From the sequence record NC_070874.1: 64,000 nucleotides of DNA; one strand, 5' to 3'. Made by a program: the position numbers and the translations under genes. This document shows, one piece after another, positions 4,581 through 39,800 of the stretch. Position 1 is the stretch's first letter, and the number at the start of each line of letters is the position of its first letter. The notes under the pieces are model-generated. The model was not told the origin of the DNA and searched no databases. It saw only the letters and a list, made by a program, of their open reading frames with translations. The DNA is from Escherichia phage vB_EcoP-ZQ2.

Positions 4581-4961
4581 TTAGAAAGTCAGTTTACGAG
4601 CATATTTATTCTCGTCTGCTGGGATGTCAGCAGCCTCTGCTTTCACGCGTCTTAGCTGAACTTGCAGGTTAATGATACCCTCTTCACCTGGTTCCAGGTT
4701 CTGAGCATATGCGATTAACTGTTCCAGCAAGTCGTTCTGTGCACAACGCATAGCACGGAAGTCAGCGTTGCTGCTATTAGTAGGCAGCGGTTCCTGAGTA
4801 TCCAGTGGAATACCAGTAGGCAGTGAGATGAATTTCTCATCATCAGAGCCTTCATTAGCTACATAACCAATGTTCAGCCAGAACTGAGCTTTTGGTTTGT
4901 CAGTTTTAGCAGTGGTAGCAGCAGCGTTAGATTGACCGAAAGTGAATTTTTGAATAGCCAT
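4581..4961 (-). CDS. hypothetical early protein (about 126 aa from the internal start MAIQKF)
   Basis: ORF track gives 4581..5054, but that N-terminal extension runs into the promoter hairpin at 5068-5084 and lacks an RBS; the ATG at 4961..4959 has a GGAGAG RBS 7 nt upstream. Confidence 0.5.
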
Positions 4962-5058
4962 TTTGTACTCTCCAGATTTATGTGATTTACGGGTGAACTC
5001 GTCGGTGAGAACACCCAAACAAAGGGATAAAAGTTCAATGATTAGTGGATGCATTTAC

Positions 5059-5084
5059 ATCATCCATAAGACGCGGAGCGTCTT
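5059..5084 (-). promoter_or_regulatory. N4-type virion-RNAP hairpin promoter (leftward)
   Basis: CATCCATAA-AGACGC-GGA(5075-5077)-GCGTCTT: 7-bp stem (5068-5074/5078-5084), GGA loop, CC 11-12 nt from loop centre; intergenic between the genes ending at 5090 and starting at 4961. Confidence 0.6.
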
Positions 5085-5089
5085 TATTT

Positions 5090-5305: not shown

Positions 5306-5359
5306 GGATGACTCCTAATTGGTTGAAATGTATCCGTAAGCTGTGGAACAGCTTAGTTT

Positions 5360-5506
5360 TTACTTATCTGATAGCAGGATGGATTTTACTTTGTGACCAT
5401 TACCATAGTCAGTGTTTACCAGAGGTTTTACAATGTGAACGGAAACCATCACAACAATTGCAAGGACACAAACAGTTAAGATAAATGCGTTTTCTAGTTT
5501 GCTCAT
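5360..5506 (-). CDS. small hydrophobic membrane protein (48 aa), not in ORF track
   Basis: Minus-strand ATG at 5506..5504; translation MSKLENAFILTVCVLAIVVMVSVHIVKPLVNTDYGNGHKVKSILLSDK with one predicted transmembrane helix; fills an otherwise empty 290-bp gap. Confidence 0.35.
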   Translation of the reverse strand: MSKLENAFILTVCVLAIVVMVSVHIVKPLVNTDYGNGHKVKSILLSDK

Positions 5507-5564
5507 AGTAGGAATCTCTTTTAACTTTTTATGCAGAATAGTTGAACTATCTAATGCCCTTAAC

Positions 5565-5586
5565 AGGAGGCTCCTAAGAGCCTCCT
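5565..5586 (-). terminator. stem-loop after the gene ending at 5594 (terminator or RNA-stability hairpin; weak U tract)
   Basis: 9-bp stem AGGAGGCTC(5565-5573)/GAGCCTCCT(5578-5586) with CTAA loop. Confidence 0.35.
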
Positions 5587-5593
5587 AATTGAG

Positions 5594-5917
5594 TTATTCT
5601 TTAGTCAGGATGTCGATGACTTTGGAATATTCTGCGTTATAGATACGAGCGTTCTCAGAATCCTTGCAGAATTCCTCGATACTTTTCTTACGCAGAGTCT
5701 CAGTCATAGCTGTTTCCTCTGCCAGTTTATTAACGAATGTATGCATTTCTAATTTAGTACGAATGGCTTGTTTCTCTGCCATAGTACTTACATATGAATT
5801 AAGCATACCTACTGCTTTAGTTGCAGTACCAAAGGTATCTGCAACAGTAGTAGCAGCTGAGTTAACAGTACCAAGCAGAGTTCCTGCGGTCATACGTACA
5901 GTAGCTTGAGTAGTCAT
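5594..5917 (-). CDS. hypothetical early protein (107 aa)
   Basis: ORF track; first gene downstream of the hairpin promoter at 5960-5974. Confidence 0.55.
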   Translation of the reverse strand: MTTQATVRMTAGTLLGTVNSAATTVADTFGTATKAVGMLNSYVSTMAEKQAIRTKLEMHTFVNKLAEETAMTETLRKKSIEEFCKDSENARIYNAEYSKVIDILTKE

Positions 5918-5949
5918 GATGATAGCTCCAATAGTTGATGATAGGACGA

Positions 5950-5975
5950 CATGTCCATAACATGCGGAGCATGTG
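5950..5975 (-). promoter_or_regulatory. N4-type virion-RNAP hairpin promoter (leftward)
   Basis: GTCCATAA-CATGC-GGA(5966-5968)-GCATG: stem 5960-5965/5969-5974, GGA loop, CC 11-12 nt from loop centre. Confidence 0.6.
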
Positions 5976-6118
5976 TAACGTGTAAGGTGGGGTAGGGTAG
6001 TGGCTACACCGTCAACATACCGGGGGGGATGGTTGAGTGTAAGGGTGTAGCCCTAGGTGTACCACTGCAGCTGTACATAGCTATGACCAAAATGGTATGC
6101 AAAAATATGATAGCTATC

Positions 6119-6445
6119 CTACTTATAAGCAGTTAAATAGGAGGAAGGAATCTGGGAGAGGATGTGGTCATAGTAATAGCAGTATGCTTCACTATTGGTA
6201 GAGTTTACAGGCATACCTATGTAGTCAAACACCCACAAACAGAAGTGGTTGAGTTCGTGGATGAGTGTATGTAAGGGTTCCATAAAGATACCGATCAATA
6301 CTCGATTACCAGAGTAAGAAGTATATCCCTTACAACCATCCAAGTCTGGCTCATACCCTTTAAGTTTCTTGTACTTTTTAATGAAGGTATCCCGGTCGAA
6401 TACTACTTCTAACTGTACCGGGTAGGGGGATGTGTTTAGTTTCAT
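6119..6445 (-). CDS. small HExxH (zincin-like) putative metallopeptidase (108 aa)
   Basis: ORF track; HTLIHELNHF contains HExxH; start overlaps the stop of upstream paralog E by 4 nt (co-transcribed). Confidence 0.5.
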   Translation of the reverse strand: MKLNTSPYPVQLEVVFDRDTFIKKYKKLKGYEPDLDGCKGYTSYSGNRVLIGIFMEPLHTLIHELNHFCLWVFDYIGMPVNSTNSEAYCYYYDHILSQIPSSYLTAYK

Positions 6446-6726
6446 TGCCTTTCCTTGTAGATTGGGGTGTTACCCTCGAAGGATAGGATGTACTTGTCTG
6501 TATTGAGATGCCAAGGACTAAAGCTACCTTGCCAGGACATAGGTGTTCCTGGTTCAAGTAAATATACTTCTGCCTTCTTATTGTATAAGAAAAGTAATCC
6601 TTGTAATTCATGCAGAGACTGCTCATCTGGAACCAAGATAAGTACATCTGCGTCTAGATTAGTTATATCTTTATGACGGTAGTAGTCATCCTCAAGTACT
6701 GCTGAATAAATTTTACTGATAACCAT
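6442..6726 (-). CDS. member E of a tandem paralogous small-protein family (94 aa)
   Basis: Shares core LILVPDEQSLHELQGLLFLYN with the four upstream ORFs; TAATG stop/start overlap with member D. Confidence 0.6.
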   Translation of the reverse strand: MVISKIYSAVLEDDYYRHKDITNLDADVLILVPDEQSLHELQGLLFLYNKKAEVYLLEPGTPMSWQGSFSPWHLNTDKYILSFEGNTPIYKERQ

Positions 6727-7046
6727 TAGAGGCTCTCGTCGCTAGATAAATATGAGGTAGATGGGTAGAGGGTAATAAGTCTCCCTGTTAGGGTAGTTAC
6801 TACCATAGGTTCATTCTCAGACAGTACGTATACACTGGTGTGTTCTGGTATTTCCATAGAATCTACTATCTTAATGAACTGGATAGGTTGCCCCAACAGC
6901 AGGCAAGTACCAATGAACACATCTGCTTCTTCACTTGGCTCATACAGGATGGTGGTAACCCTCCCTTTACCTGCCAGAATATTATCCAGTGTGTATGGGG
7001 ATAAATAACAAGTAGTGGCAAAGCTAATAAGACAATACAGATGCAT
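6726..7046 (-). CDS. member D of the tandem paralogous family (106 aa)
   Basis: Core TTILYEPSEEADVFIGTCLLLGQ, a more divergent copy of the family motif. Confidence 0.55.
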   Translation of the reverse strand: MHLYCLISFATTCYLSPYTLDNILAGKGRVTTILYEPSEEADVFIGTCLLLGQPIQFIKIVDSMEIPEHTSVYVLSENEPMVVTTLTGRLITLYPSTSYLSSDESL

Positions 7047-7049
7047 ACC

Positions 7050-7361
7050 TTACTTCCTTACGTAGTAGTAACGATACTCACCCTTCTCATAACGACTCTC
7101 CCATTGATAGCTATCAGATACCATCATGTATGGAATAGGGTCATTAGCGTTATAGTTGGTATAGACAGAAGGGGGAATAATACATACAACCTTACGGTCA
7201 TTACCTGCTAGGAAGAGTTGACCCCTTACTTCATGGTAGTCCTCTAGGGTAGGAACCAGGATTACTTGCTGAGGATTGCTGTTCATGACTTCTTCTAAAG
7301 TGAAGTCAGTTGTATACATAGGCTCTTTAGCAAAACTGGGGATAGTCATTATGAATTTCAT
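7050..7361 (-). CDS. member C of the tandem paralogous family (about 103 aa; start uncertain, 7361 or 7319)
   Basis: Core VILVPTLEDYHEVRGQLFLAGN; the track ORF 7050..7436 overlaps member B in another frame, so an internal start is preferred. Confidence 0.55.
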   Translation of the reverse strand: MKFIMTIPSFAKEPMYTTDFTLEEVMNSNPQQVILVPTLEDYHEVRGQLFLAGNDRKVVCIIPPSVYTNYNANDPIPYMMVSDSYQWESRYEKGEYRYYYVRK

Positions 7362-7725
7362 GATGGATTTTCCTTCCTTTGGGAATGGGTCTGAAGTAAA
7401 CGGAAAGTGTTTTATTAAAGAGGTTATGTTCAACAATCATTTCCCAACCGGGTACTTTATAGAACCGGATTCCAGGGAAGAATGTTTCGAAGTCTGCATA
7501 CTCAGTAAGGTCATACACCTTTGGTTCAGTAAGTATCTCAGTGTTAAGTTGCAGGTTGTATAGGAAAAAAGAACCAATAATCTCGTGTGATTCCTCGCAA
7601 TCAGGAAAGAATACTGACTGTCTTGGGGATAACATCTTACTTACTACCTCTGGTTCCTCTAGGTAATATGGTTCTTGCTTGCGTAGCATACCGGTAATAT
7701 CAATATCAAAAGCATAAATGCTCAT
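7327..7725 (-). CDS. member B of the tandem paralogous family (132 aa)
   Basis: Core SVFFPDCEESHEIIGSFFLYN; AGGAGG RBS before the ATG at 7725; preceded by a terminator. Confidence 0.6.
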   Translation of the reverse strand: MSIYAFDIDITGMLRKQEPYYLEEPEVVSKMLSPRQSVFFPDCEESHEIIGSFFLYNLQLNTEILTEPKVYDLTEYADFETFFPGIRFYKVPGWEMIVEHNLFNKTLSVYFRPIPKGRKIHHEIHNDYPQFC

Positions 7726-7740
7726 AGTTGCATACCTCCT

Positions 7741-7777
7741 GAAAAAGAAATGGGGTAGAGCCTCTCGACTCTACCCC
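7741..7777 (-). terminator. rho-independent terminator (minus strand) between paralog A and paralog B
   Basis: 9-bp stem GGGGTAGAG(7752-7760)/CTCTACCCC(7769-7777), 8-nt loop; in minus sense followed by ATTTCTTTTTC and then the AGGAGG RBS of the next gene. Confidence 0.6.
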
Positions 7778-7925
7778 TTACCGTTTTCTATCACGGGTCA
7801 GTTCATCACCCTAGATACATGTGTATCGTTAGCCTACTAGGTAGGAAAGGAGCCGGGCAACCCTGACTGTAGAAGTTACTAACTCTTTACGAGTACCGCC
7901 ACTGTCTACTAGGCGGCATGACTAA

Positions 7926-8216
7926 TCACATCGTCACCGTCATCCGAACACTGTCTTTGCTTCGCCTGACGGAGACACTATGAGGTAATTTTGTGAAGAA
8001 CACAAGAGAGGAAAATGTTTTATCTAAAGTATAAGTTTCCCTTGGTTCTTTGATGGCAATGTTAGGACGGTTCTCTAATAGCATAATTCCAGACAACTCA
8101 TGGAATGTATCATCATCGTGGGTGACTATGATGTCACCTGGGAAGAAGCCAGCCTTGGTGTGGTCTATCTCTGCGTATACATCTTTGGAGTCGTGGACTC
8201 TCATATAGATTCTCAA
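7926..8216 (-). CDS. member A of the tandem paralogous family (96 aa); probable TTG start
   Basis: Core DIIVTHDDDTFHELSGIMLLEN; AAGGAG RBS 6 nt upstream of the TTG at 8216..8214; C-terminal extent uncertain. Confidence 0.5.
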   Translation of the reverse strand: MRIYMRVHDSKDVYAEIDHTKAGFFPGDIIVTHDDDTFHELSGIMLLENRPNIAIKEPRETYTLDKTFSSLVFFTKLPHSVSVRRSKDSVRMTVTM

Positions 8217-8387
8217 AGGTTACTCCTTTTGGGAATAGGGTCATCGGAACATTACATACTATTTAGTATCATGAACTTTTTCTATATCATGACTAAAGTG
8301 TAACTGTATGGTATCGTTTCTTCAAGGGGTATCTCACCCCAAGAAAAGAATCTTCTTTAATAGACATAACTTTGTAGCGAGATAAGT

Positions 8388-9077
8388 ATGAGTGAACTAA
8401 CTAAGCAGCAGATTATTAATGCCTTACCTGCTAACTTCAAAAACAGTGTGACCCAGGAGTTGGTAGACACAATTAACAACATAACCCAAGACCAACTAGT
8501 TGCTGAGTCCTTTCGTGAAAACTTTATCTCCTACTCTGGTGTAATGAAGGAAGGTAAGTTTAAGACACAGGACTACATGAATGCAGTTCAGTATGTAACT
8601 TATAAACATATGGGCTACTCAAATAAGGAAGCCTACTTCAAAACATTCCCCAACCGACAAGCAGAACTTGTTGCACGAGGAACCAGTGAGAAAGATATTA
8701 GTGCTTATGTATCTGCTTACCACAGGGGTAAGTTAGTTAACCTCATCATGGAACAAAGTTTGGTTCCAGTGTGGATTGTGAACCAAGACAATTATCAGAA
8801 GGCAATCAACGTTCAGGTTGAACTGATGACTTCAGCAGCAAGTGAGAAAGTAAGATGTGATGCAGCTAACTCTATCCTTACTCACTTAGCTAAGCCAAAG
8901 GACCAGGTAACGAATATCAATCTGGACTTAAGAGAGAACTCCGGATTAACTGACCTCAAGGCAACACTTGCTGCATTAGCTGAACAGCAGATTAATGCAA
9001 TCAATAGTGGTGTACCTACTAAAGAGGTTGCTGGTTCTAAACTAGTACGAGCAGATGAGGACATTACAGATGTCTGA
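8388..9077 (+). CDS. first gene of the late operon, directly upstream of the large terminase (N4 gp69-like position; possible small terminase subunit)
   Basis: ORF track (229 aa); overlaps the large terminase start; function inferred from position only. Confidence 0.55.
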   Translation: MSELTKQQIINALPANFKNSVTQELVDTINNITQDQLVAESFRENFISYSGVMKEGKFKTQDYMNAVQYVTYKHMGYSNKEAYFKTFPNRQAELVARGTSEKDISAYVSAYHRGKLVNLIMEQSLVPVWIVNQDNYQKAINVQVELMTSAASEKVRCDAANSILTHLAKPKDQVTNINLDLRENSGLTDLKATLAALAEQQINAINSGVPTKEVAGSKLVRADEDITDV

Positions 9078-30855: not shown

Positions 30856-33800
30856 TTGAACAGGAATCATGCTATGTCAACATTTGACCGTCTGGCAGGT
30901 TTCGCAGACAGCATCACTACTGCTAAGCAAGTCGATGTCTCTACTGCAACCTCTCGGAAACAAGCTGAACAAGGGCAAAACCCTTTCCAATTAACCCCAC
31001 AGAACGCCTACCAGTTACAGGCAGGTCGTGCCGGTGATTTAGGTGCTGGTGCATTTGACCCAGGTTCTATTCAGGCAGATTTTACTAATGCCTCTCCTCT
31101 TGAAATCATAAACAAGTATGGCAATGAGCAAGGAATGGACATTCTTAATGCTCGTGTCAATGCAGCTAATGCTGTTCGTCGTGATTTAACTAAGAGTCGT
31201 ACATATGGTGAAGCACTTGGTGATACCCTTTCTGGTGTTGGTCTTGGTGTTGCTAATACCCTTGGGGGCATTGCTGCTCTTGGCACAGGCTTGGTCAATG
31301 ATAATGCCGGGGCATCCATTGCTTCCGGTCTTGACTGGTTGAACAAAGGTGTACACAACCTACAGTCTGATGCACTGAATGCTCGTCGTAATGTAGTACA
31401 GAACCAGAACGTAATATCTGCACAGGAAAACGAAAAACAATATAAGCAGGATATTGATAAAGGAGAAAGTGAACTCGTTGCTTCCTTGTCTCGTATTGGT
31501 CGGGATGCTTACGATTCAGTTGCTAATACTTTGTCCAATGGCATGGCTGCTACAGATGGTATTGCTGAAGGTGTTGGTTCACTGTTTACTGGTGGTCCAC
31601 TTATCCGTGGTGTATCTGCACTTGGTAAAGTAATGGTAGGTGGGGATAAAGCTGTTAAGGGTATTACCTTAGCTGCTGAATTAGGTTATCGTCCTGCACG
31701 TATTGCACAGACTGCTGGTCGTGTTGCTGCACCTGCTATAGCAATTGGTGGTATGGAAGCTGGTGGTGCATACCAACAGACTGCTAATGAAATTATGGAA
31801 ATGCCATTCAGTGAACTGGCTGCTAAATCTCCTGTATACCAACAACATATTAAAGATGGTTTAACTCCTGAAGAAGCACGACGTCAGACTGCATCTGAAA
31901 CAGGTATCACTGCTGCTGGCTTAACCGCCCCAGTTGCTGCTCTCACTGGTCCACTGGTATCCAAGTTTGAACTTAACCCACTTAAGGTAGGTTCACTGGC
32001 TGGTGCTGGTTCTAACATGCTACGTGAGACTGTGGAGGAAGGTATTCAATCCGGTTTCGGTCAATTCGCACAGAACAAAGCAATTCAGGGTAACGTGGAT
32101 GCTAATCGTGATTTGCTTAAAGGTGTAGGTGAACAAACTGGTCTAGGTGCATTGTATGGCTTTGGTTCTGCTGGGGTTGCTCAAGCTCCTGGTGTAACTG
32201 CTAAGACTGCCGTTGCTGCCGTTGGTCCTGCTGTACGTACTACCCTGGCTGGTGCTTCTCTGGCTGGTAAGGCACTAGCAAAAGTAGCTTCTCCTATTAC
32301 TAACATTCTGGTTCAGCGTGGAGAAGAAGTTGCTAAGCGAAATGAGCAAGCATCTCCTGTATCAGACGTTACGGTTAATGCTGCTGCACAAGAAGCTACT
32401 GCTCAGGCAGAACAGGCTCAAGCAACTGTTCAGGAAGCAGTAGATGCAATGGACATTTCTCCAGAAGAGAAAGCTGCTGCTACTCAGTATGCTGCTGACT
32501 TAACTCAGGCAATGAAGTTTGACCCAGTAGAACTGGAACAAGCTAGTCCAGCAATCCGTGAAGCTGTTTCTGGTTCCACTAACCGTGTTGAAGCTATTCA
32601 GAAGATGGCTGACCTGGTTAATACTGCCGAAGATCCTAACGTTCAAATGGAAGCTGCAATCCAGATGTATGACAACATCATGTCTATGGATAGCTTCATT
32701 AACCGTGACCCAGGTGCATTAGCTAATCTGGAACAGGGTTCTCCTGCTGCTAATATTGTTGACCAGTTCTCCGGTCTGATGGCTAACGTTCAGAATACAC
32801 CGAAGGTACTTCGTGCATTCCGTGCCATCCATTCCATGATTCAGGAACAGGCAGAAGCAGGTAAACTGAAGGCTACTGAAGAAGCTAACCAAGCCCAAGC
32901 AAACAACATTGCTATGGCTGCTGATATGTCTCCAGAAGTACTGGATGCTGATTCAGTGAACATGGTTCTGAAACACGCAAGTGAAGGTAAGATTACGCTG
33001 GGGAATCGTCAGCGTGCTGCCCTGCAATCTGCTGCTGCTCTATTGCAAGGAGCACGAGAATTTGATGCTAAAGCAGAAGAGCTAGGCTTACGTCCTCAAG
33101 ACATTGTTAGTAAACAAATTAAAACCGACGAATCTCGTTCTAATGAAGGCCAGTACTCTGCGTTGCAACATGCTAAACGCATTCGTTCTGCGTATAACTC
33201 TGGTAACTTCGATTTGGCTTCCGCTTATCTCGATGACTTTATGAAGTTCGCCCAGCACATGCAGAATAAGGTCGGAGCGTTGAATGAGCATTTGATTTCT
33301 GGGAATGCGGATAAGAATAAGTCTGTCCATTATCAGGCTCTTACTCCCTCCCGTGAATGGGTACGTAGTCGTACTGGCCTCGGTGTTAATCCGTATGATA
33401 CCAAGTCTGTTAAGTTTGCCCAGCAAGTAGGACTGGAAGCCAAGACCGTAGCTGATATTGCTAACGCACTTGCTACGGCTTACCCGGAGCTTAATGTTTC
33501 TCATGTGAAAGTTACCTCATTGGATTCACGTCTGGACAAGCCTGCTGCCCAGGTAGTTAAAGAGTTCCGTCAGGGCAATCTTGACGCTGCTCAATCCCAA
33601 CAGACTAATGAACCAGTGAATCAGGTTGATGAAACTCCTGTTACAAAACAGGAACCAGTTACCCCTACTGTACAGACTAAACCCTCTGTTAGTGAAGCTG
33701 TTAAAACAGAACCCACTATTAAAGAGTCTAAACCACAGTCTGTAAAAGAACCTGAGAACCAGTCTGAAAAACAGGATACCGTTGATCAGTCTACTGAATC

Positions 33801-36800
33801 TGAAAGGGATGCTTATGTAAAAGAGAATACTATTTCTCAAGATACTCTTAATAAGTATGGCGACCGTAAAGAGAGTCCATGGCTCTTTGCTGATGGTACT
33901 GTTGTTGGTTCTAATGGTGACCACATTAGCTTGTCCGATGTATTTGGACATGATGGTTATCGTGATATGTCACTAGATACAGGTGCTATTCGCTCTACCT
34001 TCTACAAAGGAAGCGAGCAACCATTTGTATCATTGCAACTGTTTGATAATCAGAAACTGACTACTGAACAGTTCAATACTGTTCAATCATTCGTAGAAGC
34101 AAACAATGCACTGATTCAGATTGGTGTAGATACATCTGGGCTTAATACCAATAACGTTGAGAAAGAAGAAGTATCACTGGCTCAATTGAAAGCAGACTAT
34201 ACCGTTGGTGGTAAACCTCTATCTCAAATGGAAACAGTGTTCCCTGTCTATAACAATGAAAAGACACCGAACCAGTTCCTTAAAGCATTCTCTCTACCGG
34301 AAGAACCTAAGTCCCGTACCATTGGTTCTGAATCTCCTTTGACTGATGTTAAGAAAGCACTGTCTTCTGTTGCTCGCTTTGAATCATTCACTCAAAAAGA
34401 AAATAACGCTCTCACAAGTGATGTGATTAAGCGTTACCAGGACTTATTTGATTTTGGTGAAACTCTGAAGACTACTCTGTCTGACCGTCTGGCTAAGTTC
34501 CTTGCTAACAAGAATGTTGGTAAACGTTTTGCAGAAGGTACTGAGGCTAACCGTTGGGTAGGTGGTAAATTACTTAACATCGTAGAGAAAGACGGAGATA
34601 CCTTTAAGTTCAATGACCAGTTGTTAGAGACTGCTGTACTTGCTGGTCTGCAATGGCGACTGACTGCTACACAGAATGCTGCCATTAAAGACATGCAGGA
34701 TGTGGCTGCAATTACTGGTGTAAATGCTTCCTTGTTACCAGAAGGTATCCTTGCAGAGTTTGAGAATGCTCAAACCTTAGTAGAAGCTACTAACTCACTG
34801 GCTCAAAAGATTGAATCTTATTGGGGTCTTAACCGCAATGCTGATGCACCTCTGGGCTATACCAAAGGTATCCCGATGGCAATGGCTACAGAGATTCTGT
34901 CTTCCCTTATTGAGATGGGTGAAGTTAAAGAGTCCATGTTGGATGTGTCTGAAATTGACTCAGAATCTAATAAGACCATTGGCCTGTATACCATTGAGAA
35001 GCTGGATGATACCGACGCCATTAACAAATTCCCTACTGCTATTGAGGAAGCTGTCCTCATAGAACCAGAAGAGAAACTGTACCTGGGTGATGACATTCCT
35101 TCCGTGGCTCCTACTCAGTTACGTAACCCAGCTGTTCGTAATACCCCAGAACAGAAAGCTGCTCTTAAAGCAGAACAGGCTACAGAGTTCTTTGTACATA
35201 CCCCAATGGTTCAGTTCTATGAGGCGTTAGGTAAAGACCGTATCCTCGAACTGATGGGTGCTGGTACTCTGAATAAAGAATTACTTAACGAGAACCACGC
35301 TAAATCGCTGGAAGGTAAGAACCGTTCAGTAGAAGACTCTTATAACCAATTGTTCTCTGTTATTGAACAGGTAAGAGCACAGAGTGAAGACATCTCTTCT
35401 GTGCCTATTCATTATGCATACAATATGACCCGTGTCGGTCGTATGCAGATGTTAGGTAAATATACCCCCCAATCAGCTAAGCTGGTTCGTGAGGCTATCT
35501 TACCTACCAAAGCTACCCTGGATTTATCGAACCAGAACAACGAGGACTTCTCGGGCTTCCAGCTTGGACTGGCTCAGGCATTGGGTATCAAAGTTCATAA
35601 AATGACTCGTGAAACTATGTCAGAAGAACTTACCAAAGCTCTGGAAGGTAAGCTGAAACCTGCTGTAGATATGATGGTTGAGTTTGATAAGTCTGGATAC
35701 TTACCTACTGATGCAGTGGATATCTTGAGAACATCTCTGGGTAATGATAAGTCCTTTGTAGCTCTCATGGCTCTTATGGAGTATGCCCGTTACCTTAACA
35801 GTGATGACCGTGCCAACTTTAATACTCCTCTGTACGTTGAAGCTGATGGTGTAACCAACGGACCAATCAACGCAATGGTATTAATGACAGGTGGTAAGTT
35901 CACTCCAAACTGGATTAAGAATACTGCCAAAGGTGGTTTGTTCTTCGGTAAAGCCGGTAAGACTATGAATGAGCATCATACTCAGGATGATAGTGTTGAC
36001 CTGTATGAAGCATCTACCAATAGTCTGCAATTCCATCTGAATGAATTACGTAATACTTATAGTAAGAATATTCCTGTTATAAACCAGATGGACCATCTCC
36101 AGAAGTTAATGGACCTGTTCATCAAAGACTTCAATCTTAATGAAGATGGTACTCTGGACCTGAAACGTGGTATCGCTAAAAACCCACTAACCATTACTAT
36201 CTATGGTTCTGGTGCTCGTGGTATTGCAGGCAAAATGGTAAGTGCAATTACTGATACCATCTACGAGCGTCTAAGCGACGTTCTGAAAGCCCGTGCTGCT
36301 GACCCTAACATTTCCCCAGCTATGGCGATGTTTGGTAAGGAGGCTGCGTCTGAAGCCGATGCTCAGGCTAAGCTGGATACTTTCCTTACTTCTATGAAAG
36401 AACTGACTGGCAAGATTCCAGCCAAACGTAAAGGTAGGTTATTTATTAAGGAAGTAGAAGGTGCTCTGACTGGCAAGTTAAATCCTCAGAAGTTTACCGT
36501 ATCAGGGGATGCTCTGAAGAACTTACAAGAGAATATGCTGCACTTCTTTGTTGAGCCAATGAGACAAGGTATTCGGTTTACTGTTGGTGAAGGATTAATG
36601 CACTCTACTGAGAACTTGCAGAAGGCTACCCAGATTCAATCTCTGGTATTGCAGGATATGTTCCAGCAAGCAGTACAGGCTAAGCTGGCAGAAAAAGAAA
36701 AAGACCCAACATGGAAGAAAGGTGATTTCTTAACACAGAAAGAACTGAATGAAATTCAGAATAGCTTAGCTCCTCTGGCTCCAATGATTAAAACTGGTTC

Positions 36801-39800
36801 GCAGACTTTCTACATTGCTGGTAGTGAGAATACTGATGTTGCTAACCAAGTATTGGCTACTAACTTAGATGACCGTATGCGTGTACCAATGAGCATCTAT
36901 GCTCCTTCGCAAGCAGGTGTTGCAGGTATTCCATTTATGACCATCGGTACTGGTGATGGCATGATGATGCAGACTCTTTCTACTATGAAAGGTGCTCCGA
37001 AGAATACCCTGAAAATCTTTGATGGTATGAACATTGGTATTAATGACATTACTGATGCAAGCCGTAAAGCTAATGAGGCTGTATATACTTCCTGGCAGGG
37101 TAACCCTATCAAGAATGTATATGAGTCTTTCTCTAAGTTTGTTAAGAATGTTGATTTAAATAAGCTGTCCGATTCAGCAATAGATGCTATTGCAAAGTCT
37201 GCTTTAGACTTTGAGCAGCGTGCTCATATTGCCAGGGTAGATGGTGATAGAGATTATAAAATTTCTATGATTAGAGATTCTGGTATTGCATTAATTGAGC
37301 GTAACCTACGTAACATTGCTTTGGGTGTAGATATTCGTCACAAGGTAATGGACCAGGTACAAGTCACTGTTGACCAGATGGCTGCTGTAGGTGCTCCTTA
37401 TGTGAACAACGGTAAAATCTCTCTGGAAGGTCTGACTATAGACCAGCAAGTAGCCAAGCTGAACGAACTGTTTGATGCTGAATTAAACAAGCGTCGTGAT
37501 GCAGTACGTGCTGCTAAAGCGGAACCAACGAAGGCAGAACCAGTGAAGGAAGTGCCGGTGAAAGTTGTACCAGCTATGGAGAAGGTAGGTCGTGTACTGA
37601 AGTCTGGTGTACGTCTGCTGTCTAATACTGCTATCACTAAGCTGGCTAAAGAAATGACCCCTGATCAGCAAGCAGTATTGAAAGAAATACAGAAATCCCT
37701 TGCTGCTAAAGACTATAAGGTTGTTTACGGTACACCTTCTCAACTGGATGCTTATGCCATTGAGAAGAATATTACTCGCCCAGCACCGGAAGATATTGAA
37801 GCTGCTGAAGCTGGTAATGCATACGGCTGGACTAACTTTGAAGATAAGACCATCTACTTAGTTACCCCTTCCTTAGAGACTCTGGTTCATGAATTAGTAC
37901 ATGCCTCTACTTTTGAATCTGTGCTGGCTCACTACGAGGGTACTCCTAATGAAGCAGTCCAGAATATTGAAGACTTGATGAACCAGTTCCTTACTCTGGA
38001 TGTTAAGGATGAATCTCCGGCAGTACGTGAAGCGTATGCCGATGCACTGAATACCATTAATGGTCACCTGTCTAATGGCTTCATTGAACCAGCAATGGCT
38101 AAAGCTGCTGCTCTGAATGAGTACATGGCTTGGGGTTTAACCAACCGTGAACTTATTAGTAAGCAGAAGAAAACCACTGCACTTAAAACTATGGTTCAGG
38201 CTGTATATGAAGCAATCAAACGTCTGGTATTTGGGCGTAAGAAAGCTCCAGCTAATGCAGATGATATGTTCTCAGGCTTACTGTTTAACTCTGCTGTAGT
38301 AATGCGTGGGCAGGCTCCTACTGCTGCTGTAGCTAAAGACACTACTCTGTTCCATAACAAAGCATACGGTAACAATACTCGTCTGGAAGAGTTAGGTAAG
38401 ACCTTCGATAAACTAATTACTGACTACATTGGTTCAGAACCAGTACAGCAAGTAATTCGTAAAGGTAAGTTCTCTGATGCAGTAGTGAATGCAACTAAAG
38501 TAACTCGTGATGTTCAGGCTCATGGCTTCACCATGAATATGCAGGAACAGCGTCTATTTACTAACATTGTTGCTGCACTTGCTACTGAGGCTGCTATTAA
38601 CCCAGCAGCCATGGCTCGTGCACAGGAATACTACACGCATGTTACTAAGAACTTGACCGTTGAAGCGTTCATGGCTGACCCAGATAGTACTAACCCTGCT
38701 GACCGTTACTATGCACAACAGAAGTTCGACACCATCATGGGTGCTAACAACATTGAGTTTGATGCACAAGGTCGTTCTTCCTTACTGCCTACCTTTGTTG
38801 GTCTGGCAATGGTAAGTGAAGAGGTACGTAAGGTACTGGCTGATATTCCTGTTATGAAAGCAGATAAGAAATCAGGTAATACTGTTGACGCAATGCTGAC
38901 TAACATCGGTACTGCTGCAATGGTTAGTCTGAATGCTCGTGTAGCAGGTGATACTAAAGCCACTAACGTGCGGGAAGGTATGGATGCACTGGCTCAGACA
39001 ATTATGGAGACTAGCCTTAATGCACAATCTTTCTATGATTCCGTTGCTACCCCTACTGGTAATGCTATCGACCGTGCTAACCAATATCTGGTGGATTCTA
39101 TTGATGTACTGTCTACTCGTACTTTGGAAGGTGCTCGTGAAGTTGCAGCTAATACCAAGAACCCACTAGTTAAAGGTGCTGCTCATGCTGCACAATTGGT
39201 AGCTGCTATTGCTACAGAGAAAAATGGTGCAATTGTAGCTGAGGGTGTTATGGCTGCAATGAACCAGGGTAAAGTATGGCAACCGTTCCATGACCTGGTT
39301 AATGACATAATCGGTCGTACTAAGAGCAATGCTTCTGTATACGATTTGATTAAAGCAGTACGTGCACAGGTGCAAGCTGACCGTCAACAGTTCCGTGAGC
39401 ATTTGCCTACCACTATCGCATCTAAGTTCAGCCGTAAGCTGACTAATGATGAGTGGAAAGCAATGCATACCGGTATGGGTAAAACTGACTTAGCTGTTCT
39501 TCGTGACACTATGTCTCTGGCTGAAATCCGTGACCTGTTGACTGACCAGAAGATTGTTGACCGTGAGGTTAATAAACTGGAAGCAGATTTGCAGAAGCAA
39601 GCCGGACGTAACTGGCCTCTGATTAGTCGTAAGTCTAAGCAACTGGCTCAGTACATGATTAATGGTACAGTCGGTAATAACCTGCTGCGTAATGCTACTG
39701 CAATTTCTCGTTTACTGGGTGAACGTAAGACTACACGTTCTGTTGTAGATGTAGCACAACTGGATAAATTGATTACCCTGTATGCACTGGAAGCAATGAA

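Follow-up and report, generated by a model that had tools for sequence, protein, structure and literature searches.

The subject of this analysis is a small gene in the genome of Escherichia phage vB_EcoP-ZQ2 (NC_070874.1), studied within a stretch of 64,000 nt that is referred to here as the window. The open reading frame (ORF) listing of the window places this gene, a 108-aa ORF with an ATG start codon, on the minus strand at 6119..6445. Its product, MKLNTSPYPVQLEVVFDRDTFIKKYKKLKGYEPDLDGCKGYTSYSGNRVLIGIFMEPLHTLIHELNHFCLWVFDYIGMPVNSTNSEAYCYYYDHILSQIPSSYLTAYK, includes the sequence HTLIHELNHF as residues 59-68, in which HELNH (residues 63-67) is an instance of the HExxH motif. An earlier interpretation made from the DNA letters (the sequence-only reading) had singled out a 108-aa ORF with HTLIHELNHF, giving no strand, and had stated that it overlaps the stop codon of the preceding ORF by 4 nt. 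Both observations were confirmed. The ATG of the HExxH ORF (6445-6443) overlaps the TGA of the minus-strand ORF at 6442..6726, the four bases ATGA (6442..6445) being common to the two, and this arrangement suggests translational coupling of the HExxH ORF to the upstream ORF. A Shine–Dalgarno-like sequence, AAGGAAAGG, can be read directly at 6448..6456, 2 nt 5′ of the ATG. The codons for H63-E64-L-N-H67 are situated at 6245..6259, and those for E86-A-Y-C-Y90, where Glu86 is the putative third ligand of zinc and Tyr90 is conserved, at 6176..6190.

The 4 kb surrounding the HExxH gene are 85-91% identical to the corresponding DNA of the G7C-like group of N4-like coliphages (genus Gamaleyavirus, family Schitoviridae). 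On the minus strand, the genes follow in the order gp70, gp71, gp71.1, gp71.2, a 94-aa ORF (ORF94) and the HExxH gene, after which come approximately 200 bp without a gene and then gp1 and gp2. The names gp70 to gp71.x, gp1 and gp2 were taken from the annotation of phages G7C, St11Ph5 and PGN829.1.

Pairwise comparison of the HExxH ORF with its orthologues gave ratios of nonsynonymous to synonymous substitution (dN/dS) of 0.087 against PGN829.1, 0.153 against UE-S5a and 0.099 against St11Ph5. These values, obtained with three related phages, indicate that the ORF is under purifying selection. The HExxH motif is rare in the window, with seven occurrences in 120,556 six-frame residues, or approximately 0.006 per 108 aa. 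This rarity, together with the presence of the motif in 147 of 148 representative homologues (see below), rules out a chance match. It might nevertheless be argued that both the ORF and its motif arose by chance in terminal non-coding DNA and that no functional gene is present, given that phage G7C lacks this segment and has no annotated gene in the matching terminal region. Against that argument stand the dN/dS values of 0.09-0.15, the hundreds of homologues that retain both the length and the motif, the confident structure model described below, and the ribosome-binding site and coupled start of the ORF. The probability of a chance ORF is negligible, this explanation being already refuted by dN/dS and motif conservation; the HExxH ORF is a real gene.

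The HExxH protein matches phrog_1365 (listed as ‘unknown function’) with an E value of 3e-29, and all 50 of the family members that were sampled match the same PHROG. Close homologues of the same length form 127 clusters, and an exhaustive HMMER search returned 608 clusters (50% identity) at E≤1e-3; among the best 150 of these 608, sizes are mostly 100-130 aa. All of the named homologues are annotated ‘hypothetical’, and within the sample examined the family occurs only in phages or phage-like contigs. A search of the literature on the family, on HExxH in N4-like phages, on metalloproteases in anti-defence and on N4 gp70/71 did not uncover any work on this small protein; it yielded only the virion RNA polymerase domain discussed below and general surveys of zincins.

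Conservation within the family was assessed in two samples. In a diverse alignment of 50 members, whose identity to the window protein is only 21-45%, the residues G40, H63, E64, H67, E86 and Y90 are invariant. A second sample comprised 148 representatives, each from a separate 50%-identity cluster. HExxH was present in 147 of these, the sole exception being a 557-aa repetitive false positive, and the longer signature HExxH-X(15-20)-ExxxY was present in 145, with a spacing of X18 in 131 of the 145. The sequence-only reading had made its proposal depend on the retention of HExxH by homologues, and on this point it is well supported.

A model of the protein was predicted with AlphaFold2 (AF2) on the family alignment, with a predicted local distance difference test (pLDDT) score of 92.8 and a predicted template modelling (pTM) score of 0.83. 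The model comprises a strand at residues 11-15, a helix at 18-29, strands at 40-45 and 48-53, and helices at 57-75 and 85-96. The helix at 57-75 carries the HExxH motif at a pLDDT above 90, and E86 is situated at the N-terminus of the helix at 85-96. The zincin core as described by Iyer et al. 2017 (PMC5512222) consists of a helix, a three-stranded sheet, the HExxH helix and a second helix with a Glu ligand. Judged on secondary-structure order alone, the predicted elements of the HExxH protein are in the order of this minimal core. Structure prediction, proposed in the sequence-only reading as a means of looking for a zincin fold, therefore yields an element order that fits such a fold, with HExxH on a helix.

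Searches for remote homologues point in the same direction. When the family profile was searched against PDB sequences, 13 of the 14 top-ranking matches (E 0.018-0.9) were to zincin domains, namely those of BMP1/tolloid astacins (E=0.018), myroilysin and an M35 peptidase, together with a stretch of the N4 virion RNA polymerase (vRNAP), residues 2188-2234. The latter residues fall in the HExxH ‘C1’ subdomain of the polymerase (PMC13434306). A PDB sequence search with a profile of close homologues gave only chance matches to DsbD. When the predicted structure was compared with viral models, 21 uncharacterised phage proteins were found at E<1e-3, and nearly all of the weaker neighbours that bear informative names are zincins (SprT-like, BepA-like, IrrE, ‘Peptidase’). 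Sub-threshold Pfam matches among the family were to DUF4344, M10, SprT-like and DUF6782.

The vRNAP encoded in the window (ORF 30856-41691, plus strand) has an HExxH zincin-like domain of its own, with the sequence TLVHELVHA at nt 37888-37902. An alignment of this domain was built from 11 schitoviruses, across which H105, E106, H109 and E182 (in ‘NEFMAW’; query numbering) are among the invariant residues. Alignment of the HExxH family with this domain by hhalign gave a probability of 92% and an E value of 6.4e-7, the latter being a pairwise value without database-search correction. The 86 columns of the alignment run from the backing helix through the hairpin to the HExxH helix and the helix that follows it, and a control alignment against the upstream paralogs gave 0.3%. 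A single match was obtained when the vRNAP zincin domain was used as the query in a word-indexed protein search.

Both proteins are found in N4-like phages, and the small protein and the metallopeptidase (MPTase) domain of vRNAP and polyvalent proteins (PMC5512222) have the same core of sheet, preceding helix, HExxH helix and next helix. The local sequences are also alike (TLIHELNHF in the small protein, TLVHELVHA in vRNAP). There are clear differences, however. The small protein stands alone at 108 aa, whereas the vRNAP domain is embedded in an injected protein of 3,500 aa; the Glu helix follows after 18 residues in the small protein, whereas the vRNAP domain contains long inserts; and E86 is invariant in the small-protein family, whereas the Glu aligned with it is not invariant in the vRNAP domain. 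The vRNAP domain appears, by profile comparison, to be the best match of the HExxH family, from which a specific common origin does not follow.

The position of the HExxH family among the known zincins was considered next to its signature. An invariant Glu (E86) on the helix that follows the HExxH helix, at a fixed spacing, is characteristic of the gluzincin clan. In classical gluzincins, the spacing is HEXXH-X18-E in the M1 aminopeptidases and near-identical in thermolysin (M4), and the phage family shares the M1-type spacing from second His to Glu ligand (X18 in 131 of 145). Classical gluzincins, however, are 300-900 residues long and have large extra domains, and no match to them in sequence or fold was detected for the phage protein. 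The minigluzincins, MEROPS family M95, are built on a minimal plan of sheet, backing helix, active-site helix and glutamate helix. They are soluble catalytic units of approximately 105-110 residues with HExxH and a downstream Glu ligand, and so resemble the phage protein in size and plan. They are archaeal, whereas the HExxH family comes from phages, and the ExxxY signature and an N-terminal PYP motif are specific to the latter. The minigluzincins considered were abylysin/proabylysin (PDB 4JIU), projannalysin and selecase (cited via PMC4559962). No match to abylysin, jannalysin or selecase was obtained in the PDB profile searches, and the family was not assigned to M95.

Two other groups were rejected. 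The ImmA/IrrE proteins (M78) are phage-encoded zincins with HExxH and Glu that cleave repressors of temperate phages, and an ‘IrrE protein’ is a weak viral structure neighbour of the HExxH protein (E=0.096). Unlike the genes for ImmA/IrrE proteins, however, the HExxH gene has gp70/71-type ORFs as neighbours and no adjacent Xre-type repressor, and its phage is strictly lytic; PF06114 was not matched by the window protein at E≤1 or by the 50 members at E≤0.1. The metzincins are distinguished by HExxHxxGxxH/D and a Met-turn. In the HExxH protein, H67 is followed by FCLWVFDYIG, in which position +3 is not Gly and position +6 is neither His nor Asp. The HExxH proteins are best classified as a family of their own, new and uncharacterised, in the zincin superfamily.

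The conserved residues allow a catalytic scheme to be proposed. In the predicted fold, a three-stranded sheet and backing helix would lead to the HExxH helix and then to the helix that bears E86 and Y90. Zinc would be held by H63, H67 and, as third ligand, E86; E64 would be the general base that activates water; and Y90, located one helical turn past E86, would be a probable catalytic helper. By analogy with other zincins, the substrate might dock on the hairpin strand just ahead of the active-site helix. The protein would thereby cut a peptide bond, acting as a soluble zinc endopeptidase.

A protein of this kind could also bind zinc without being a protease. As a pseudo-protease or adaptor, it would bind or block a host protein, or recruit a host protease, with no cutting of its own. 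The very small size of the HExxH protein and its lack of an extra substrate-binding domain agree with such a role, and all of the family members are annotated ‘hypothetical’, their catalysis being a prediction. Room for a non-catalytic binder is also left by two close homologues without a complete HExxH, namely P0102, with YELNH (10 member sequences, 67.7-kb contig), and P0089, with HALNH (72-kb contig). These two may be inactive variants, in which case catalysis is dispensable in some lineages, or they may reflect sequencing errors. On the other hand, E64 is dispensable for zinc binding alone, and yet it is invariant in the 50 members and present in 147 of the 148 representatives; Y90 is likewise invariant and is placed one turn after the Glu ligand, as expected of a catalytic helper. 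A non-catalytic function is consequently regarded as unlikely, and the HExxH protein is probably an active protease.

The interpretation that is favoured, with moderate confidence, is that the gene encodes a stand-alone cytoplasmic zinc metallopeptidase of approximately 105 residues, predicted to consist of a minimal zincin core and carried as an accessory gene by a G7C-like coliphage. Several results weigh against it. Foldseek comparison with solved structures gave no significant match, the top (non-significant) match being the SPRTN protease domain. Taken one by one, the PDB matches of the family profile are weak, with a best E value of 0.018, and the hhalign E value, as indicated above, is a pairwise one. 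Scans of Pfam, NCBIfam and PADLOC with the window protein, and with the 50 members, gave nothing above threshold. The broken motifs of P0102 and P0089 have to be counted here as well. In addition, matches to sigma-70-like promoters between 5400 and 8500 were no commoner than in shuffled sequence, and none was assignable as the promoter of the operon. The remote-homology search suggested in the sequence-only reading has therefore had a mixed outcome: profile matches are mostly to zincins, with the vRNAP domain at 92%, but a significant fold match to a solved structure was not obtained.

The ORFs upstream of the HExxH gene had been described in the sequence-only reading as an array of paralogs, and this array is real, though very diverged. 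It consists of five tandem minus-strand ORFs (reported span 6726-8216), namely gp70, gp71, gp71.1, gp71.2 and ORF94, that have in common the core ILvPD.E..HE..G..FL.N...EP. They are 16-27% identical to one another, and their PHROG families cross-match weakly. The first paralog, a homologue of gp70 (7926..8216) recognised from ORF listing, annotation and alignment, is divergent from gp69, the small terminase gene (8388-9077, plus strand). It is followed by gp71 (7327-7725), gp71.1 (7050-7319) and gp71.2 (6726-7046), named after G7C and St11Ph5, and by ORF94 (‘paralog E’, phrog_16338; 6442..6726), which was identified by PHROG match and alignment. The longest ORF for gp71.1 (7050-7436) would encode 128 aa from a TTG start and has an overlap of 110 nt with gp71. 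A shorter product is favoured by the 89 aa annotated in St11Ph5, and the PHROG match begins at residue 26; translation probably starts at the ATG at 7319. Among the close relatives G7C, St11Ph5, UE-S5a and PGN829.1, this block varies in gene content.

The HExxH protein is not itself a homologue of the paralogs, since alignment of the two families by hhalign gave a probability of 0.3%. A functional pairing with them had been raised in the sequence-only reading, and in its strongest form the zincin would process, or act as partner of, the gp70/gp71-type proteins in a dedicated two-component system. The HExxH gene is indeed tightly packed behind the paralogs, with a start that overlaps the last of them in ATGA, and ORF94 and the HExxH gene constitute a single indel of approximately 595 bp relative to G7C. 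The pairing is not conserved, however. G7C and N4 have paralogs and no HExxH gene at the matching position. Homologues of ORF94 were found in 38 phage records and homologues of the HExxH protein in 97, with partial overlap, and the latter set includes families without such paralogs; elsewhere, the homologues are located in unrelated contexts where gp70/gp71-type paralogs are absent. Given that the pairing is not conserved in G7C, N4 or the other contexts, and that the zincin is unrelated to the paralogs, a dedicated system is quite improbable. The adjacency of the HExxH gene to the array looks incidental.

Whether or not the genes are functionally related, they may be transcribed together. In the stretch that begins with gp71 and ends with the HExxH gene, neighbouring cistrons either overlap or lie at most 8 nt apart, and no terminator-like site is found among them. 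It is plausible that this block is co-transcribed, with the HExxH gene as its last cistron. The only terminator-like site between 5400 and 8500 is a strong hairpin, resembling an intrinsic terminator, on the minus strand at 7752..7777, between gp70 and gp71, in which GGGGTAGAG...CTCTACCCC is followed by a T-run. The description of the HExxH gene as the last cistron of the paralog operon can thus be retained, as a plausible inference from tight packing, for the part that begins with gp71; gp70 is set apart by the hairpin. This hairpin lies 26 nt ahead of the gp71 start codon. Either transcription of the gp71-to-HExxH block reads through the hairpin, or the structure serves some other purpose, for example attenuation or the stabilisation of RNA.

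Neither an Rfam scan nor a tRNA scan of 5400-8500 gave a match. The intergenic region between the divergent genes gp70 and gp69 (8217-8387) is conserved down to phage N4 and contains a hairpin, GGGGTGAGATACCCC, at approximately 8325-8339, with T-rich and A-rich runs at its flanks. This region probably holds promoters for both directions.

The order of genes in the window differs from that in records of the linear genomes of related phages, in which gp70-71.x are last at the right end and gp1 is first at the left end. When the ends of those records were located by blastn, position 7 of G7C corresponded to 6053 in the window, and the point at which alignment of the St11Ph5 record ended corresponded to 6061. 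Since the left end of G7C and the end of the St11Ph5 record both map near 6059, the window represents a circular permutation of the linear genome, and the right-end and left-end genes for this reason look contiguous in it. The physical terminus, or the boundary of a terminal repeat, is thereby placed approximately at 6055..6063 (~6059), some 59 bp past the stop codon of the HExxH gene. It follows that the HExxH gene is the right-most, and last, gene of the linear genome.

On the other side of this terminus, signals of a different kind are found. The N4 promoters for the virion RNA polymerase consist of a GC-rich heptamer and a 3-nt G-purine-A loop within inverted repeats; they are situated at the left end, which is injected first (PMC4496689). 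Hairpins with a GGA loop and a stem of at least 6 bp occur only four times in the 64-kb window, centred at 5967, 5346, 5076 and 1710. All four are on the plus strand, the template for minus-strand genes, and each is located just 5′ of a minus-strand gene. The heptamer GCGGAGC occurs three times in the window, at 5964, 5073 and 1707. The first of the corresponding hairpins, ACATGC-GGA-GCATGT (5960..5974), precedes gp1 (5594-5917), the second (5066-5086) precedes gp2 (4581-5054) and the third (1701-1719) precedes a 272-aa ORF at 851-1669. The stems of these three hairpins are perfect, at 6-7 bp with a GGA loop, and from their sequences they look like the P1-P3 promoters of N4. The fourth hairpin (5337-5355) has an 8-bp stem with a T:A closing pair. 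A further hairpin, AGGAGGCTC-TTAG-GAGCCTCCT (5560-5585, minus strand), is found immediately 3′ of the gp1 stop codon and might serve to terminate or process early transcripts.

With respect to its own strand, the HExxH gene has all three GCGGAGC hairpins downstream of it, with the terminus at ~6059 in between. Scans of the whole window for hairpins and heptamers revealed no vRNAP-type promoter hairpin upstream of the gp70-to-HExxH block. The gene was therefore not placed in the N4 early (vRNAP-transcribed) class, as it has no hairpin promoter 5′ and is located at the right end. The sequence-only reading had put it in an early phage region, a view that is not borne out for what is the last gene at the right end, with vRNAP promoter hairpins found only downstream. 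Because it is at the right end with no virion-polymerase promoter in front, the HExxH gene would not be expressed until the complete genome is inside the cell, and would thus not be an immediate-early gene.

The distribution of the gene among relatives indicates mobility. According to blastn, positions 6149-6743 of the window, which comprise ORF94 and most of the HExxH gene, are missing from G7C; this is the indel of approximately 595 bp mentioned above. The edges of the indel, at 6119-6148 and 6726-6761, are inside a common C-terminal tail (YPS-SYLTAYK). The first of these edges is made up of the last 10 codons of the HExxH gene (PSSYLTAYK*), a tail it has in common with the 3′ end of G7C gp71.2. 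The C-terminal ends read ...LITLYPSSYLTAYK in G7C gp71.2, ...LITLYPSTSYLSSDESL in gp71.2 of the window and ...QIPSSYLTAYK* in the HExxH protein. Because the flanks join inside this common tail, the last ~10 residues are variable among close homologues. These sequences suggest that cassettes are exchanged by recombination within short homologies at gene ends. The HExxH gene is an accessory gene of this G7C-like (N4-like) coliphage; the N4 equivalents at this end of the genome are only gp70, gp71 and the 42-aa gp72. In one record, PP301343.1 (Escherichia phage UE-M6, 76,110 bp), the HExxH gene is found at two places, and that assembly may include a long terminal redundancy spanning the gene.

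Further afield, the contexts of the homologues are diverse. In Possum, an N4-like Pectobacterium phage, the homologue is located between the small (TerS) and large (TerL) terminase genes; in Axy21, a phiKMV-like Achromobacter phage, it follows the lysin gene near the right end; in the Vi1-like phage Det7 it is situated among hypothetical genes; and in phiEap-2 it is found in the replication module, between an endonuclease gene and a Lar-like gene. Homologues in metagenomic contigs are found either within series of small ORFs or close to ParB/ATPase/terminase genes. In three podovirus lineages, the homologue is in last-entering DNA or in late operons.

The phiEap-2 context bears on the possibility that the HExxH protein is a DNA-dependent protease of the SprT/Wss1/ArdC kind, clearing DNA-bound or cross-linked proteins such as those of restriction or other defence systems. 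Zincins of the SprT-like/Spartan/Wss1 (WLM) and ArdC types are, like the HExxH protein, small domains and are common in mobile elements, and examples of both the ArdC and the SprT type have been described from phages and plasmids (PMC5512222, PMC7824862). The phiEap-2 homologue is flanked by the endonuclease and the Lar-like restriction-alleviation gene; the SPRTN protease domain is the best, non-significant, PDB match in Foldseek; SprT-like proteins are among the labelled viral structure neighbours; and one family member has a sub-threshold Pfam SprT-like match. None of these matches is significant, however. Where SprT has His as third ligand in HExxHx5H, that pattern is absent from the HExxH family, in which the third ligand is Glu at X18, and the HExxH protein has no DNA-binding module, whereas proteases of the SprT/Wss1/ArdC kind have DNA-binding partners. 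SprT-like/WLM membership was rejected, as there is no His six residues past H67 and PF10263 was matched once among the 50 members, with E=0.05. Finally, a gene that enters the cell last is a poor fit to an early anti-restriction role. This possibility is accordingly considered quite improbable, and the late timing argues in particular against an immediate-early anti-restriction function in this phage.

For the favoured zinc metallopeptidase, the free movement of the gene, its dispensability in close relatives and its last-entering or late sites favour a specific host or phage target and action in the middle or late part of infection. Rather than the adjacent paralogs, the substrate would be a single, specific protein of the host or, with lower likelihood, of the phage. 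A broader proposal can be put forward tentatively and with considerable doubt. According to this proposal, phrog_1365 would represent a new peptidase family at the level of MEROPS, among the smallest stand-alone metalloproteases and linked evolutionarily to the N4 vRNAP zincin domain. Many unrelated lytic phages (N4-like, Vi1-like, phiKMV-like, T4-like, crAss-like and jumbo) would use it in middle or late infection as a freely mobile effector to cleave a single, specific host protein, perhaps one involved in defence or in the stress response.

That a phage should encode a small zincin is not in itself surprising. What is noteworthy is the existence of hundreds of clusters of ~105-residue proteins whose catalytic signature is nearly invariant and which occur in many lineages of lytic phages, among them coliphages of the therapeutic type and Klebsiella phages. 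The data presented here correct the impression that phrog_1365 genes belong to the N4-type early region, and they offer an annotation label for the family, that of a minimal gluzincin-like metallopeptidase. If active, the HExxH protein would rank among the smallest zinc proteases found in nature, and it would provide the first functional handle on several hundred sequence clusters that are labelled ‘hypothetical’ in public libraries. A 105-residue protease with a narrow target would be a useful tool, and its substrate could point to a host factor that diverse phages must remove.

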